IMG/VR virus record: IMGVR_UViG_2693429700_000015
Direction: 5' to 3' (one strand)
Length of the DNA stretch: 4,612 nt
Source: a virus
Taxonomy: Duplodnaviria > Heunggongvirae > Uroviricota > Caudoviricetes
The notes under the pieces: model-generated
What the model saw: the letters and a program-made list of their open reading frames with translations, nothing else
Databases searched by the model: none
What the model was told of the DNA's origin: nothing
Shown: one piece after another, positions 142-4,533 of the stretch
How the letters are laid out: each line of letters begins with the position of its first letter
Position numbering within the stretch: position 1 is the stretch's first letter
Position numbers and translations under genes: made by a program

Positions 142-576
142 TACGTCAGCAAAATAGCGGAAAAGGCCGGGGACTCTCCAGCCAAGTTCATCACTGAAGT
201 TAATAAGCTGAAATCTCAGTCAGGCGGTGAAATTTACAACACTATTTTTTCTGGAAAGCACATGAAAGAGCTTGATGCTCTTCATGAAGTTCTACAGCAA
301 ACAGCAAGGTCAGACACCGCAAATGTAGTAACTCAGACGGGGCAATTGCAAGCCAACAGGATAAGGACGATTGGCGCAACTGCGACCCTTGGTGTATCAC
401 TGGGACTTGAGGCTGGTTTCGGTGCAATCATGCGCTTGTATGAGTCCAAAGCAGCAAGGAATGCTCTCTTACGTCTGGCAAACACCAAAGCAGGAACGCC
501 AGCCTATGAAAGAGCGTTAAGTAACGCTGCAAATGCCGTCAGGCCGCTGTTTGCTACTGAGGCAACACGGCAGTAA
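142..576 (+). pseudogene. 3' fragment of a gene apparently truncated by the IS insertion; product unknown
   Basis: The reading frame of track ORF 262..576 stays open with no stop codon all the way back to the IS boundary at 142 (40 further codons: [47 protein letters not shown]...). No convincing Shine-Dalgarno precedes the ATG at 262. Consistent with the C-terminal 144 codons of a longer gene whose 5' part was separated by the IS. Product not recognised. Confidence 0.45.
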
Positions 577-600: not shown

Positions 601-990
601 CTAACATTTTCTTTTTACTTTTCCAACAAAAGCTTTGGTTGAATCCATATTTCCATAACCGGAAATGGTTTTTGACATTAAAACTGTTCCAGTAGGATGT
701 ATTACCCATGAGTCGATAACGCGTTGAGTTTCGCCATTCGCGCCGATTCCTATGATGGAGTTTTTAGACAATTCTTTGTAAGCCATGCCGCCCGCATCTG
801 TCCCAGAATATGTGATGCTGGCATCTTCACCGCTTGTCTTAATGATGAATGTTCCACTAAAACCATCTTCTTCCGGATGGAAATTATTTCGCTCTGAATA
901 GCTTATTCCGCGCATATCTCCAACGACCCAGCACTCTGCTGTAGCCCCAAAAGATATGAATAAGAACATAGCAGCAAGAAATTGCTTCAC
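601..990 (-). CDS. hypothetical secreted/periplasmic protein with Sec-type signal peptide
   Basis: 129-aa ORF with GTG start at 990-988 preceded by a strong Shine-Dalgarno (GGAGG at 1000-996, 5-nt spacer). The N-terminus MKQFLAAMFLFISFGATA-E has a basic residue, a hydrophobic core and an A-x-A cleavage motif. The mature protein has one Cys near its N-terminus and one at the extreme C-terminus. Family not recognised. Confidence 0.6.
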   Translation of the reverse strand: MKQFLAAMFLFISFGATAECWVVGDMRGISYSERNNFHPEEDGFSGTFIIKTSGEDASITYSGTDAGGMAYKELSKNSIIGIGANGETQRVIDSWVIHPTGTVLMSKTISGYGNMDSTKAFVGKVKRKC

Positions 991-1227: not shown

Positions 1228-1364
1228 AACGTAATGGTTTAAACATGTCGCTAAAGTGGTTGTAAGTTAGCCTCCGAAGGATTGCTGATAGCTTTGTTAT
1301 AGTATTAAATGACATTTGACATAGTTGGATACTTAGCTGCGGCTATCAAGATGGAGGTATGTTT

Positions 1365-1808
1365 ATGCTCACTTGTTTTGATGTCGCCGACTACTTCTTG
1401 GCGCATTGCGATGAAGAAAGTGGCGACATTATCTCTAACCTAAAAATTCAGAAGTTGACGTATTATGCCCAAGGGTTTTCTCTGGTTCTTCTGGGTAAGC
1501 CGCTATTTAATGAGAAAATTGAAGCCTGGATGCATGGGCCAGTAGTTCCTGAATTGTATCGTAAATATAGGGACTGTGGTAACGGCGCTTTACCTGCGCC
1601 AGAAAACTTTGACGCTAAAAAATTCAGTGAAGATGAAATTGAATTGCTGGATGAGGTGTATAAAGTTTATGGTCAGTTTTCTGCCTGGAAACTGCGCAAT
1701 ATGACTCACGAAGAGCAGCCATGGAAAGATGCTTACATTGAGGGTGCGGTTAGCCAAGAAATCACACTTGATTCTATGAAAGGTTTTTTCAAAACGTTAA
1801 TTAACTGA
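1365..1808 (+). CDS. Panacea-domain (DUF4065; GepA/SocA-like) protein, putative antitoxin of a PanA/PanT-type module
   Basis: The segment KIQKLTYYAQGFSLVLLGKPLFNEKIEAWMHGPVVPELY matches the conserved core of DUF4065/Panacea proteins as I remember it (KLQKL-Y-AQ ... PLF-E-AW-HGPV). Start chosen at ATG 1365 (GGAGG at 1353-1357, 7-nt spacer) rather than the track ATG at 1359, which is only 1 nt after the Shine-Dalgarno. A TTGACA hexamer lies at 1316-1321 inside a tandem TGACAT-T-TGACAT, about 45 bp upstream. Confidence 0.75.
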   Translation: MLTCFDVADYFLAHCDEESGDIISNLKIQKLTYYAQGFSLVLLGKPLFNEKIEAWMHGPVVPELYRKYRDCGNGALPAPENFDAKKFSEDEIELLDEVYKVYGQFSAWKLRNMTHEEQPWKDAYIEGAVSQEITLDSMKGFFKTLIN

Positions 1809-1813
1809 CGTGT

Positions 1814-2236
1814 ATGTCTAGAGTTAAGGGAAGAATAAAACAGAGGGATAAAGAGAGCTCTGCTACTGTTGGCCTCTCTATCCATCACGAATCTCATGAT
1901 GTAGACAAAAGTCCGCCTGTATTTTCTCTTAGATACCTACAAAAGGGGTATTGCCTAGATTGCTGCCAAAAGCATGAAAAGGCAGCATTTGCAGATAGGC
2001 TGTTCAGGTTAAGTCAGATGTCATGGGATGAGATACGAAAATCTGATAAACACGGGCTTGGGACGGAAAAAATTGCCAGAAACGCGATAAAGGCTCCGAT
2101 TCCTAAGCATGTTACTCAAGATGTGGATTTCATTGCGTTCAGATTTTGCTCTAAGGCACCTATGGTTGGTTATAAGATAGGAGCCACTTTTTATGTCTTA
2201 TGGCTCGACAGGGAGTTCAAGCTATACAAGCACTAA
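1814..2236 (+). CDS. hypothetical protein; candidate toxin partner of the upstream Panacea-domain protein (family not recognised)
   Basis: 140-aa ORF starting 5 nt after the Panacea gene stop (operon arrangement) and ending at a strong terminator. No Shine-Dalgarno at the 1814 ATG, so translation would need coupling; an alternative internal start at ATG 2018 (AGGT 8 nt upstream) would give 73 aa. Basic N-terminus, Cys cluster (CLDCCQKH), C-terminus GYKIGATFYVLWLDREFKLYKH. No family recognised from memory. Confidence 0.5.
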   Translation: MSRVKGRIKQRDKESSATVGLSIHHESHDVDKSPPVFSLRYLQKGYCLDCCQKHEKAAFADRLFRLSQMSWDEIRKSDKHGLGTEKIARNAIKAPIPKHVTQDVDFIAFRFCSKAPMVGYKIGATFYVLWLDREFKLYKH

Positions 2237-2279: not shown

Positions 2280-2483
2280 TTAACCAAATCGATCCTTAAA
2301 GCGTCTATCGCTGTTGCGTCTCTCCATTTTACTGTTGCAGTACGGACAAAGATGCTGTTTCTTTCCATCGATAGTCCATGTGAAGTACTTTTTCTTAAAT
2401 CCAGCACCACAGATATCGCAACTTCTTGGTTTAAACATGCTGGCTATGAAGACAAGAACAACAAATCCTATGATCCATTCCAT
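2280..2483 (-). CDS. small membrane-anchored zinc-ribbon protein (67 aa), function unknown
   Basis: N-terminal hydrophobic helix (EWIIGFVVLVFIASMF) followed by CxxC...(17 residues)...CxxC (CDICGAG...CPYCNS) and a basic tail. Ends at the bidirectional terminator. Shine-Dalgarno is weak (ACAGG about 10 nt upstream). Confidence 0.5.
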   Translation of the reverse strand: MEWIIGFVVLVFIASMFKPRSCDICGAGFKKKYFTWTIDGKKQHLCPYCNSKMERRNSDRRFKDRFG

Positions 2484-2624
2484 ATCATGTACCTGTTTTA
2501 ACTTTATTTTTTGTTTTTTAGGGATTAATCAGAAACTTTATCTTGCGATTAAGCAAAGCTACTAGCTAACAAAAGAGTGCGTATACAATCAATCGTTTCA
2601 CATCAACCTCAACAAGGAGAAATC

Positions 2625-2810
2625 ATGACCATAGAAGAACGCCTGAACAACATTGAGTTGAACCAAACCCTGCTTGACCAGCGACTTTCAGATCTTGAGC
2701 TTAAAGATCTTGATGCGCAAATATCAGAAGCAGAAGCCAAGCTCTCCAGCCTAAACCACCGCAAGAAGCAAATCCGCAACAGAATTACTCAGGGACGCGG
2801 AAGCTGTTGA
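2625..2810 (+). CDS. small coiled-coil-like hypothetical protein (61 aa)
   Basis: ATG at 2625 preceded by a strong Shine-Dalgarno AAGGAG (2614-2619, 5-nt spacer). Sequence MTIEERLNNIELNQTLLDQRLSDLELKDLDAQISEAEAKLSSLNHRKKQIRNRI has heptad-like Leu/Ile spacing. A TACAAT -10-like hexamer lies at 2584-2589. The track ORF start at 2577 (GTG) lacks a Shine-Dalgarno and would contain this promoter-like element. Confidence 0.5.
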   Translation: MTIEERLNNIELNQTLLDQRLSDLELKDLDAQISEAEAKLSSLNHRKKQIRNRITQGRGSC

Positions 2811-2994
2811 GGTGGGATGCTAGGTCTCTATCGTTAAAATCAAGGCTGCTAATCATTTCATTGTAAATGGCGTTTTTATCTTCCATTGGCAGTCTTGAGT
2901 AAACCAGACACAGAGCATATTTCAGGGAGTTTAGCTCTTTCTCTAGCTCTTCCTTGCTTGACGTTTTTGACTTAATAAACTGTTTTTTATTCAT
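2785..2994 (-). CDS. hypothetical protein (69 aa) translationally coupled to mnt
   Basis: Its start ATG (2994-2992) overlaps the mnt stop in an ATGA arrangement, with AAGGA about 6 nt upstream inside the mnt 3' end. Hydrophilic, no transmembrane segment, family not recognised. Its 3' end overlaps the convergent 2625..2810 ORF by 26 nt. Confidence 0.5.
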   Translation of the reverse strand: MNKKQFIKSKTSSKEELEKELNSLKYALCLVYSRLPMEDKNAIYNEMISSLDFNDRDLASHLNSFRVPE

Positions 2995-3239
2995 TTTGCA
3001 TCCTTACCATACATGGTTTTCAGTGTTTCAAGCAGCGCCTCTTTGAATTTGTCAGCTTCTTGCTGAGCAAATGACTCAACTGACTTTGGCGACCTATCTT
3101 CATCAATCGCGGCTTGCAAAATCATGACGATCTCGGAGTTAACAGAGCGACCATTTTTTGATGCTCTGACAGCAAGAGCCTCGCGCAAAGATTCAGGGAT
3201 TCTTACCGTAGTTGGAGAAATTGACACACCCTTTGCCAT
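2991..3239 (-). CDS. mnt: Mnt-like ribbon-helix-helix repressor (immI region)
   Basis: 82 aa. TTVRIPESLREALAVRASKNGRSVNSEIVMILQAAI is an Arc/MetJ-type RHH motif (beta-strand, G-R-S-x-N-S-E helix). Length and C-terminal helix (FKEALLETLKTMYGK) parallel phage P22 Mnt (83 aa, C-terminus ...VFDTLKDLYKK) as I recall it. Transcribed divergently from the arc-ant pair, as in P22 immI. Confidence 0.8.
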   Translation of the reverse strand: MAKGVSISPTTVRIPESLREALAVRASKNGRSVNSEIVMILQAAIDEDRSPKSVESFAQQEADKFKEALLETLKTMYGKDAK

Positions 3240-3259
3240 AGCACACCTTTGGTATTCAA

Positions 3260-3271
3260 TTTGATATCAAA
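3260..3271. promoter_or_regulatory. 12-bp perfect palindrome TTTGATATCAAA in the mnt/arc divergent control region; candidate operator
   Basis: Perfect dyad symmetry, located 21 bp upstream of the mnt start codon in the 114-bp region separating two RHH repressor genes. RHH dimers and tetramers bind symmetric operators. Confidence 0.4.
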
Positions 3272-3288
3272 GTGTATGCAAAAGAAAT

Positions 3289-3317
3289 TTGACTAGATAT
3301 ACTCACTTTGCTATCTT
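3289..3317 (+). promoter_or_regulatory. putative sigma70 promoter for arc-ant (Pant-like)
   Basis: TTGACT (3289-3294), 17-bp spacer, TATCTT (3312-3317), about 35 bp upstream of the arc Shine-Dalgarno GGAGGG (3344-3349). The spacer contains CTAGATATACTCAC, a possible repressor binding region. Hexamer match is moderate. Confidence 0.35.
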
Positions 3318-3353
3318 TTGTATTCGAAAAGAGTCGTTTGTGCGGAGGGTAAC

Positions 3354-3506
3354 ATGGAGAAAGAAATAAGTAAGATTTTGGTAAGGATGCCGCAGTCGTT
3401 AAAGGACGCTATCGGTAGCAGGGCAAAGGAAGAATGCCGGTCGTTTAACTCGGAAGTGATTAAGCGGTTGATAGACAGCCTGAAGAGAGAGGGGATAACG
3501 GTGTGA
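3354..3506 (+). CDS. arc: Arc-like ribbon-helix-helix repressor
   Basis: 50 aa. ILVRMPQSLKDAIGSRAKEECRSFNSEVIKRLIDSLKREG aligns motif-for-motif with P22 Arc (FNLRWPREVLDLVRKVAEENGRSVNSEIYQRVMESFKKEG) as I recall it. Start at ATG 3354 with GGAGGG 4 nt upstream; the track TTG start at 3318 is rejected. Confidence 0.8.
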   Translation: MEKEISKILVRMPQSLKDAIGSRAKEECRSFNSEVIKRLIDSLKREGITV

Positions 3507-3738
3507 TTCGCTTGGATGCAGTAGTCAAAGAGATTGCGATTACCATTTTAAGACCAAATTTTGTTCATGGCGAATCATTTGGCACGAACGAAAAATTGAG
3601 AAGAGAAAGAGTATTCAGTGGCAAGCGCACATTTTCAGAAGTGATGCTTGATGCGGCAAAGAAATCAAAACAGTGAAGCCCCAACTGCGGTAACAGTCAG
3701 GGCTTCGGTTGTCGGTAAATTCGTGGAGAAAAACCAAC

Positions 3739-4533
3739 ATGAATAGTATAGCAATTTTAGAAGCAGTGAACACCTCTTACGTACCATTCAACGGTCAGCA
3801 AATTATCACCGCCATGGCTGCCGGAGTTGCATATGTTGCGATGAAGCCAATCGTTGAAAACCTTGGAATGAGCTGGTCAACGCAGCAAACAAAACTCATG
3901 AAGCAGATTAGCAAATTCAACTGTGTTCATATGAACATGGTTGCCGCTGATGGGAAGCTTCGTAAGCTACTCTGCCTTCCTTTGAAGAAGTTAAATGGAT
4001 GGCTGTTCAGCATCAACCCCGAGAAAGTTCGAGCTGACATCCGCGATAAACTGATTCAGTACCAGGAAGAATGCTTTACTGTACTGCATGACTACTGGAC
4101 AAAGGGAAAGGCAGAAAATGCACGTAAGAAAACATCTGTTGATGACAGGACTCCGCTTCGTGATGCTGTAAATATGCTAGTCAGCAAAAAGCATCTAATG
4201 TACCCAGAAGCTTATGCAATGATTCATCAGCGTTTCAATGTGGAAAGTATTGAAGAGCTTGATGCATCTCAGATACCGCAAGCCGTAGAGTACATCCACA
4301 GGGTAGTGCTTGAAGGTGAGTTCATCGGCAAACAAGAGAAGAAGCCCAACGGGCTTTCCGCAAAAGAAACAGACATCCTTGTATGGCTGTGGGATTATGC
4401 CAACCGCTCACAGGCATTATTCCGCGAACTGTATCCGGCGCTGAAACAAATTCAATCGAACTATTCCGGCAGATGTCATGACTGCGGTTATGAGTTCTCC
4501 CGTATTATCTGTATTAGCTCAGACCTGATCTGA
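3739..4533 (+). CDS. ant: phage antirepressor (P22 Ant-like, N-terminal P22_AR_N-type domain)
   Basis: [21 protein letters not shown]...[12 protein letters not shown]...[27 protein letters not shown]...[16 protein letters not shown] matches the conserved N-terminal domain of P22-type antirepressors as I remember it. It lies downstream of arc in the same orientation, as in immI. Start taken as ATG 3739 (GGAG at 3725-3728) rather than the track TTG at 3709. Confidence 0.75.

Follow-up and report, generated by a model that had tools for sequence, protein, structure and literature searches.

The question this locus raises is whether a 69-codon open reading frame (ORF) that begins inside the stop codon of a phage repressor gene is a gene at all and, if so, what kind of gene would be tied so closely to the maintenance of a prophage. 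The ORF, here called ORF69, lies in a 4,612-nucleotide stretch of Caudoviricetes DNA (IMG/VR record IMGVR_UViG_2693429700_000015; the whole stretch is referred to below as the window). The window comes from a P22-like (Lederbergvirus-type) prophage of E. coli or Salmonella, whose secondary-immunity (immI) region it represents. An earlier, sequence-only reading had described ORF69 as an unrecognised gene translationally coupled to the repressor gene mnt, and had suggested that it might act in superinfection exclusion or defence. Judged by its conservation, ORF69 is a genuine conserved prophage gene, and we consider it probable that it is a true accessory (‘moron’) gene occupying a slot reserved for cargo at the end of the mnt operon. 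The features on which this argument turns are the following.

2625-2810, plus strand: orf61, a coiled-coil gene of 61 amino acids (aa), phrog_7586
2785-2994 (stop codon included), minus strand: ORF69, 69 aa, 8.1 kDa, from the ORF list and the sequence
2991-2994, minus strand: ATGA overlap of the ORF69 start (ATG, 2994-2992) and the mnt stop (TGA, 2993-2991), read directly
3001-3005 (3005-3001 as read on the minus strand): Shine-Dalgarno (SD) sequence AAGGA, 6 nt before the ORF69 ATG
2622-3008: mosaic module of orf61, ORF69 and the SD-bearing junction, from a four-way DNA alignment of the window, E. coli W4, Kapi1 and Emek
2991-3239, minus strand: mnt, encoding an 82-aa Arc-family ribbon-helix-helix (RHH) repressor and heading the leftward operon
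3240-3353: Pant/Pmnt control region separating the divergent mnt and arc genes, presumed origin of the mnt-ORF69 transcript

The coordinates, the four-nucleotide overlap and the upstream AAGGA given in the sequence-only reading are all borne out. On the minus strand the junction reads GGTAAGGATGCAAAATGAATAAA, or in longer context ...GGTAAGGATGCAAAATGAATAAAAAACAG; the SD is embedded in the final codons of mnt (..GKDAK before the stop), and the ORF69 frame runs for 69 residues to a TAA at 2787-2785. Because the window contains 49 ORFs of at least 30 aa, the length of ORF69 alone is within chance, and it is conservation that lifts it beyond. An intact frame of 68-69 codons was found in all 48 E. 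coli and Salmonella loci examined and in 38 of 38 IMG/VR viral contigs, so that the frame-breaking changes in homologous prophages which the earlier reading had named as evidence against a gene did not appear. Compared with four alleles of 76-84% protein identity, the ratio of nonsynonymous to synonymous divergence (dN/dS) was 0.06-0.12 at a dS of up to 1.6, and among the polymorphic codons of 17 close alleles 14 carried synonymous changes only and 4 changed the amino acid. Frame, length and SD persist down to 33% protein identity.

The name mnt for the upstream 82-aa ORF is justified by its match to PF03869 (E 9.6e-11), by the 37.5% identity of its product to P22 Mnt, and by the divergence of the gene from arc-ant, as in P22 and epsilon34. 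Mnt homologues carry the label ‘partition protein ATPase’ both in PHROGs (phrog_2685, phrog_795) and in RefSeq (NC_018275, NC_011976); on an 82-aa Arc/RHH repressor this label looks like a propagated misannotation.

As a gene, ORF69 is not new, and to that extent the word ‘unrecognised’ does not hold: it belongs to an already catalogued family and is annotated as ‘hypothetical’ in RefSeq (WP_001036008.1), in Salmonella phage Emek (orf69, AFM54336.1) and in Escherichia phage Kapi1 (Kapi1_062). It matches the family hidden Markov model (HMM) of phrog_16466 over its full length (residues 1-69 of 69, E 4.6e-51), and is 98.6-100% identical to the Emek and Kapi1 copies, Kapi1_062 being 100% identical. 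The word does apply to its function, since homology and structure searches returned no informative relative, and none of phrog_16466, WP_001036008.1, Kapi1_062 and Emek orf69 bears a functional annotation; nor was a paper citing these accessions found in the literature searched. ORF69 is present in 74 of 5426 complete E. coli genomes (~1.4%) in addition to the cultivable phages Kapi1 and Emek. When 1.84 billion representative proteins were searched exhaustively with a profile, 7 relatives were obtained at E<=1e-3, including 63-71-aa proteins of Providencia, Proteus and Enterobacter with 33-50% identity; the Rahnella homologue and a few metagenomic ones came from index-based profile searches. 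Neither the homology searches nor the exhaustive profile search revealed domain fusions or homologues beyond the Enterobacterales. Two hits of the exhaustive search, P0047 and P0050, were dropped as low-complexity repeat proteins, and a pattern scan of GTDB genomes, in which the pattern method was itself limiting, gave no confirmed relatives.

The coupling to mnt proposed by the sequence-only reading is upheld by the way in which the junction travels with ORF69. The ATGA junction, with an AAGGA-type SD upstream, is retained in 55 of the 58 ORF69 loci fetched, which span five genera, and the E. coli and Salmonella genes upstream of it all end in aagga-N6-ATGA. ORF69 is joined in this manner to at least five different upstream genes, namely Mnt alleles that are 100%, ~64%, ~55% and ~37% identical to that of the window, or orf77 of Emek; the same junction also follows other Mnt alleles, namely those of Proteus, Providencia, Rahnella and a metagenomic P22-like contig. 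In Emek-type phages orf77, encoding a 77-aa membrane protein, is inserted between mnt and ORF69 (L002 2994-3227), and in Providencia a 92-aa protein gene is inserted between mnt and the ORF69 homologue (L052 3702-3980); the mnt operon can thus carry two cargo genes in series. In the four-way alignment the right-hand mosaic boundary with Emek falls just past the SD, at ~3008, and megablast matches of the segment 2500-3300 break at ~3031-3072. Because the boundary falls beyond the SD, the SD belongs to the ORF69 cassette, which on this sequence evidence imposes the C-terminal residues KDAK on any gene that precedes it. The same pattern argues that translational coupling of ORF69 to its upstream gene is under selection.

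That this junction is a site of exchange is seen most directly in Salmonella phage S.Kent 1-2-1, which has the mnt (97.6%) and orf61 (98.4%) of the window and lacks ORF69. In its place stands an unrelated 105-aa signal-peptide protein whose gene overlaps mnt by the same ATGA, and the stop codons of mnt and orf61 mark the precise limits of DNA homology with the window; the arc-ant region of the window is ~94% identical in DNA to that of this phage. The alternative occupants of the same interval, including those found by sampling E. coli loci that carry orf61, are the following.

L062 1696-2013 and L064 2696-3013, also L066 and L068: secreted 105-aa protein WP_000820796.1
L063 2764-3300, also L069: ClpP-like protease (PF00574, E 2e-11)
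L065 3113-3448: Rap1a/Tai-family immunity protein (PF18602, E 1e-14), followed by a 104-aa ORF

In every slot sampled the start of the first gene lies over the mnt stop, the overlap being 4 or 1 nt. To judge from these layouts, the slot lies between the mnt stop and the convergent, late-strand orf61, which forms its constant far border. Since unrelated start-coupled genes occupy it, the mnt stop codon is a plug-in point and ORF69 one of at least four alternatives, and since proteins bound for the periplasm or for secretion are coupled in this way too, the coupling serves expression and is no sign of a complex with Mnt. P22 itself has the unrelated ORF59 at the position of ORF69 (hhalign probability 0.2%). 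The P22 pid ORFan locus was also checked as a possible counterpart, and it is not the same region. ORF69 shows the presence/absence polymorphism, and the replacement by unrelated genes at the same site, by which moron or lysogenic-conversion genes are recognised. In P22-like loci it lacks the promoter and terminator of its own that a classical moron would have, the ATGA overlap leaving no room for a promoter and no terminator following the gene. As far as can be told, such an mnt-coupled plug-in slot is apparently undescribed in the literature searched.

ORF69 homologues also occur away from mnt, those of L072 and of Enterobacter being the only ones that stand alone. In L072/L073, a P22-like prophage without mnt, arc and ant, the homologue diverges from the tailspike gene and has its own 185-nt upstream region with an AAGGAG ribosome-binding site. 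In Enterobacter kobei (L055-L057, ~4001-4216) a lone homologue on the opposite strand fills an AT-rich gap in a siphovirus-like tail module, flanked by the tape-measure gene and a DUF6246 gene; this gap is the usual place of the tail-chaperone frameshift extension. Taken together, the mnt-free homologues and the comparison with S.Kent 1-2-1 argue against ORF69 as an obligate Mnt partner, as the toxin of an RHH antitoxin, or as a component of the Ant circuit, and on these genomic grounds it can be argued to be an autonomous accessory protein.

The convergent neighbour of ORF69, orf61, encodes a conserved 55-61-aa coiled-coil protein whose homologues start with MTIEERL or MNFEERI and whose dN/dS is 0.05-0.18. 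The last 26 nt of orf61 overlap the 3’ end of ORF69 (2785-2810), and the extent of this convergent overlap is 26 nt in E. coli and Salmonella, 10 nt in Providencia, 23 nt in Proteus and 10 nt in L072, with none in L071. The pairing is obligate in neither direction, since orf61 occurs with other cargo, and ORF69 occurs in Rahnella and Enterobacter without orf61. Some RefSeq records name an N-terminally extended orf61 ‘hemolysin XhlA family protein’, for which the Pfam XhlA match is just E 0.056.

Could ORF69 and the convergent orf61 nevertheless be a two-gene module, in which for example ORF69 made in the lysogen neutralises or regulates the late-made orf61 product, with mutual antisense through the 3’ overlap? 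The presence of orf61 at all 48 E. coli and Salmonella ORF69 loci favours such an arrangement, as do the diverged ORF69-orf61 pairs kept in Providencia, Proteus and L071, the retention of the pair in L072/L073 despite the loss of mnt, arc and ant, and the movement of both genes as a single mosaic block with no terminator between them. Yet orf61 is the commoner of the two, being found in 130 of 5426 E. coli genomes (~56 more than ORF69), where it adjoins the 105-aa, ClpP-like and Rap1a cargo without ORF69; the Rahnella and Enterobacter homologues of ORF69 do without it; and the co-inheritance can be explained by physical adjacency alone. We therefore think a module of this kind unlikely. Still less likely, in our estimation, is that ORF69 serves the Mnt/immI circuit itself, whether as a co-repressor, as the toxin-like partner of an RHH ‘antitoxin’, or as an inhibitor of Ant. 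An RHH gene followed by a small gene with a 4-nt overlap is the classic layout of type II toxin-antitoxin systems, Mnt matches FitA-like RHH proteins (E 2e-8), the position of ORF69 beside mnt is conserved across genera, and a failsafe against Ant would make biological sense. However, near-identical ORF69 proteins are joined to Mnt alleles of down to 37% identity and to a membrane protein, S.Kent 1-2-1 combines the same mnt and an arc-ant region of ~94% DNA identity with the absence of ORF69, and exported proteins are coupled to mnt in just the same way. Homologues exist with no mnt or ant nearby, and neither a toxin domain nor a toxin-family match was detected in ORF69.

At the other extreme, ORF69 might not be translated, its conserved sequence being instead an mnt 3’ untranslated region or an antisense or termination zone for orf61. 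Its region is indeed antisense to late transcription and overlaps orf61. But constraint at the RNA level would not spare synonymous sites, as a dN/dS of ~0.1 at such high dS demands; the frame, its length and its SD are retained in the most diverged homologues; and AlphaFold2 gives a confident model of the protein. This possibility we regard as very remote, and the reading of ORF69 as moron cargo in a slot behind mnt is the one pursued below.

How, then, would ORF69 be expressed? The predicted transcriptional signals, and a gene that lies among them, are these.

2238-2265, both strands: bidirectional hairpin terminator (fold z -3.5 on the plus strand and -2.4 on the minus strand)
2280-2483, minus strand: gene for a 67-aa protein with an N-terminal transmembrane (TM) segment and a zinc ribbon, from the ORF list and weak zinc-ribbon matches
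3289-3317, plus strand: Pant-like site TTGACT-17-TATCTT, agreeing in position with the annotated Pmnt/Pant of epsilon34

No consensus promoter able to drive ORF69 independently was found within mnt, and we propose that ribosomes finishing mnt would restart on ORF69 by means of the SD and ATG built into the end of the upstream gene, whichever that gene is. ORF69 would then be produced whenever Pmnt is active, both in the lysogen and during establishment. The ORF69/orf61 junction holds no terminator and folds no better than shuffled sequence (z -1.2), and the first intrinsic terminator that a minus-strand transcript would meet beyond ORF69 is the hairpin at 2238-2265; the leftward mnt-cargo messenger RNA (mRNA) would therefore run antisense across orf61 to this hairpin, in the window passing the 67-aa zinc-ribbon gene first. 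In Emek and L063 the same hairpin stands only 16-38 nt ahead of the orf61 ATG and so leaves no space for a promoter, which suggests to us that antiterminated late transcription is the main source of orf61 mRNA. During lytic growth that transcription would oppose expression of mnt and ORF69. In the published RNA-seq of Kapi1, much late-strand antisense signal was seen in this third of the genome (PMC12922286).

Several points weigh against this picture of an autonomous gene made together with Mnt. Pmnt was not located by consensus scan, and the positions of promoters and terminators are predictions; the co-expression of ORF69 with Mnt in the lysogen is likewise deduced from the anatomy of the genes. 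In stranded RNA-seq of the MP1(Kapi1) lysogen, mnt (Kapi1_063) was not detected above threshold (PMC12922286). Moreover the pairing with orf61 recurs in 6 of 8 lineages, so that the autonomy of ORF69 could be incomplete. The RNA-seq study is the sole one of a lysogen with an identical ORF69, Kapi1 having a different mnt allele, and Kapi1_062 is not among the genes it lists as unexpressed in that lysogen (PMC12922286). Lysogens of these phages may have a Pmnt that is weakly active or active only under certain conditions. The mnt operon of the LF82 prophage Gally rises 50-fold inside macrophages; since Gally lacks ORF69, these data cannot be transferred to it.

The ORF69 protein is hydrophilic, as had been stated, with a grand average of hydropathy (GRAVY) of -0.69 and an isoelectric point of 6.6, and it has neither a signal peptide nor a TM segment (top 19-residue hydropathy 0.25). 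An AlphaFold2 model built on a 15-sequence alignment (predicted local distance difference test 84, predicted template modelling score 0.59) shows a disordered basic N-terminus and helices at residues 14-33, 37-48 and 53-64, and ORF69 is accordingly predicted to be a soluble three-helix bundle. Three ORF69 subfamilies share the pattern E-x-L-x-K-E-I-x-x-L-K...L-P-x-E-x-K...S-x-D-x-x-D-x-D-L-A-S-x-L-N-x-F, and L24, L35, S50, D55, D57 and N63 are invariant in the family. Neither the basic recognition helix nor the DNA-binding fold match expected of a DNA-binding regulator was found. Pfam and NCBIfam gave no match above chance, the PADLOC-DB 2.0 component HMMs included no family at E<=0.1, and comparison with solved and predicted structures gave no meaningful match. 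A profile search of PDB sequences returned a 36-residue segment of the eIF4A DEAD-box helicase (E 9e-4), which we rejected as a local chance match because the segment is part of a RecA-like domain, impossible in a 69-aa helical protein.

What such a protein might do can be narrowed only by a committed guess, which is that ORF69 would act alone and non-enzymatically, benefiting the lysogen by stoichiometric binding to some protein of its cytoplasm. As for that target, a protein of a superinfecting phage, and thus a role in exclusion or defence, is our tentative first choice; a host protein is a possibility we hold slightly more loosely; the phage’s own late protein orf61 seems an unlikely target, and the Mnt/Arc/Ant (immI) circuit an improbable one, with a small share left for some other target. 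The defence role suggested by the sequence-only reading is therefore plausible, and what speaks for it is guilt by association: a slot-mate of the type VI secretion immunity class, a Panacea pair nearby, and the sieA or Rap1a genes found downstream of ORF69 in its relatives. The part of that suggestion which stands is that slot-mates and neighbours are accessory genes of the lysogen-benefit type; what finds no echo is the protein itself, given the empty PADLOC, Pfam and NCBIfam searches. It is conceivable, if doubtful, that ORF69 represents a new family of small soluble lysogen proteins which protect the lysogen, for instance through attachment to a superinfecting phage’s protein or through the shutdown of a host function on which that phage depends, and that the mnt stop is a plug-in site for unrelated protective genes. 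ORF69, the Rap1a/Tai type VI secretion immunity protein, the ClpP-like protease and the secreted 105-aa protein would then be exchanged there and expressed through translational coupling to the secondary-immunity repressor.

Among known systems the closest in kind are accessory genes co-transcribed with a prophage repressor, such as rexA-rexB of lambda, transcribed with cI from PRM, and the repressor-linked defence genes of mycobacteriophages. Like these, ORF69 varies between related phages, and as a presumably non-essential gene on the mRNA of a lysogeny repressor it would be made in every lysogen. Unlike them, it rides on the secondary-immunity repressor Mnt and not on cI/C2, it uses stop-start translational coupling, and its 69-aa soluble product has no similarity to Rex or to listed defence proteins. 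The comparison with sieA made in the sequence-only reading is apt as regards location, since P22 SieA (PF26849) is encoded in the same interval between gene 16 and mnt and on the mnt strand. It goes no further: SieA is an inner-membrane protein expressed from its own promoter (PMC10883804), whereas ORF69 lacks a TM segment and does not match PF26849, and at its exact position P22 has ORF59. In L044/L045 an ORF69 allele is followed downstream by a gene with a SIEA domain, showing that the two occur together and do not substitute for one another. With type II toxin-antitoxin systems that have an RHH antitoxin, ORF69 shares the order of an RHH autoregulator gene followed by a small gene whose ATG lies over the stop; it differs in having no fixed cognate and no toxin fold, and in that the cargo at its junction is interchangeable. 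A further parallel is offered by small all-helical phage proteins that bind a host protein, for example Aqs1 or Tip of Pseudomonas phages, which are of the same size class (~60-70 aa) and are likewise helical and cytoplasmic with no enzymatic motif. This is an analogy only, and no sequence or fold match to ORF69 was found in the libraries searched, which do not include these proteins by name.

The matter has some weight because prophage genes co-expressed with maintenance repressors have repeatedly turned out to be defence or fitness factors. If the slot concept is true, the mnt stop codon would offer an easy signpost in the search for new lysogen-benefit genes of P22-like prophages, and we consider this mnt-coupled plug-in slot the most useful product of the analysis. 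What was a bare ORF call is now a defined, testable and conserved 69-aa family with no known relative, although should ORF69 prove to have no phenotype it would be one more small hypothetical protein.

The remainder of the window is arranged as follows, the plus strand, on which gene 16 and the tailspike gene of relatives are read, being the late-operon strand.

1 to ~145: end of an IS3-family (IS1203/IS629-like) insertion sequence (IS) element, with the start of orfA on the minus strand (ATG 93-91)
262-576, plus strand: 3’ end of gene 16 (ejection protein)
601-990, minus strand: secreted 129-aa protein with a signal peptide (phrog_2651), resembling Sf6 gp38, an uncharacterised accessory gene
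1359-1808, plus strand: Panacea/SocA-domain antitoxin (PF13274, E 2e-24)
1814-2236, plus strand: 140-aa partner of the Panacea antitoxin (phrog_8366; weak NsnC and MAG6450 matches)
3354-3506, plus strand: arc
3503-3676, plus strand: 57-aa ORF (phrog_17642)
3739-4533, plus strand: ant

Homology with Emek starts at 146 and is followed by the C-terminus of gene 16 at 262-576; the ejection-protein gene seems to have been disrupted by the IS element, and this may be a defective prophage. The many Shiga toxin (Stx) phage matches in the first BLAST search arose because the window starts with this element. The Panacea antitoxin and the 140-aa protein probably form a PanA-type toxin-antitoxin or defence pair within the accessory region.

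The 67-aa gene on the mnt strand encodes a CxxC...CxxC zinc ribbon behind an N-terminal hydrophobic helix (best family match E 0.006). It lies between the hairpin terminator and orf61 and is missing from Emek and L063; it may share the leftward transcript of ORF69 or be served by a promoter of its own. On the opposite side of the control region, the 57-aa ORF is a second stop-start-coupled small gene, its GTG start overlapping the arc stop as GTGA. It sits on the Pant transcript between arc and ant, and its counterpart in Emek is a 73-aa ORF.

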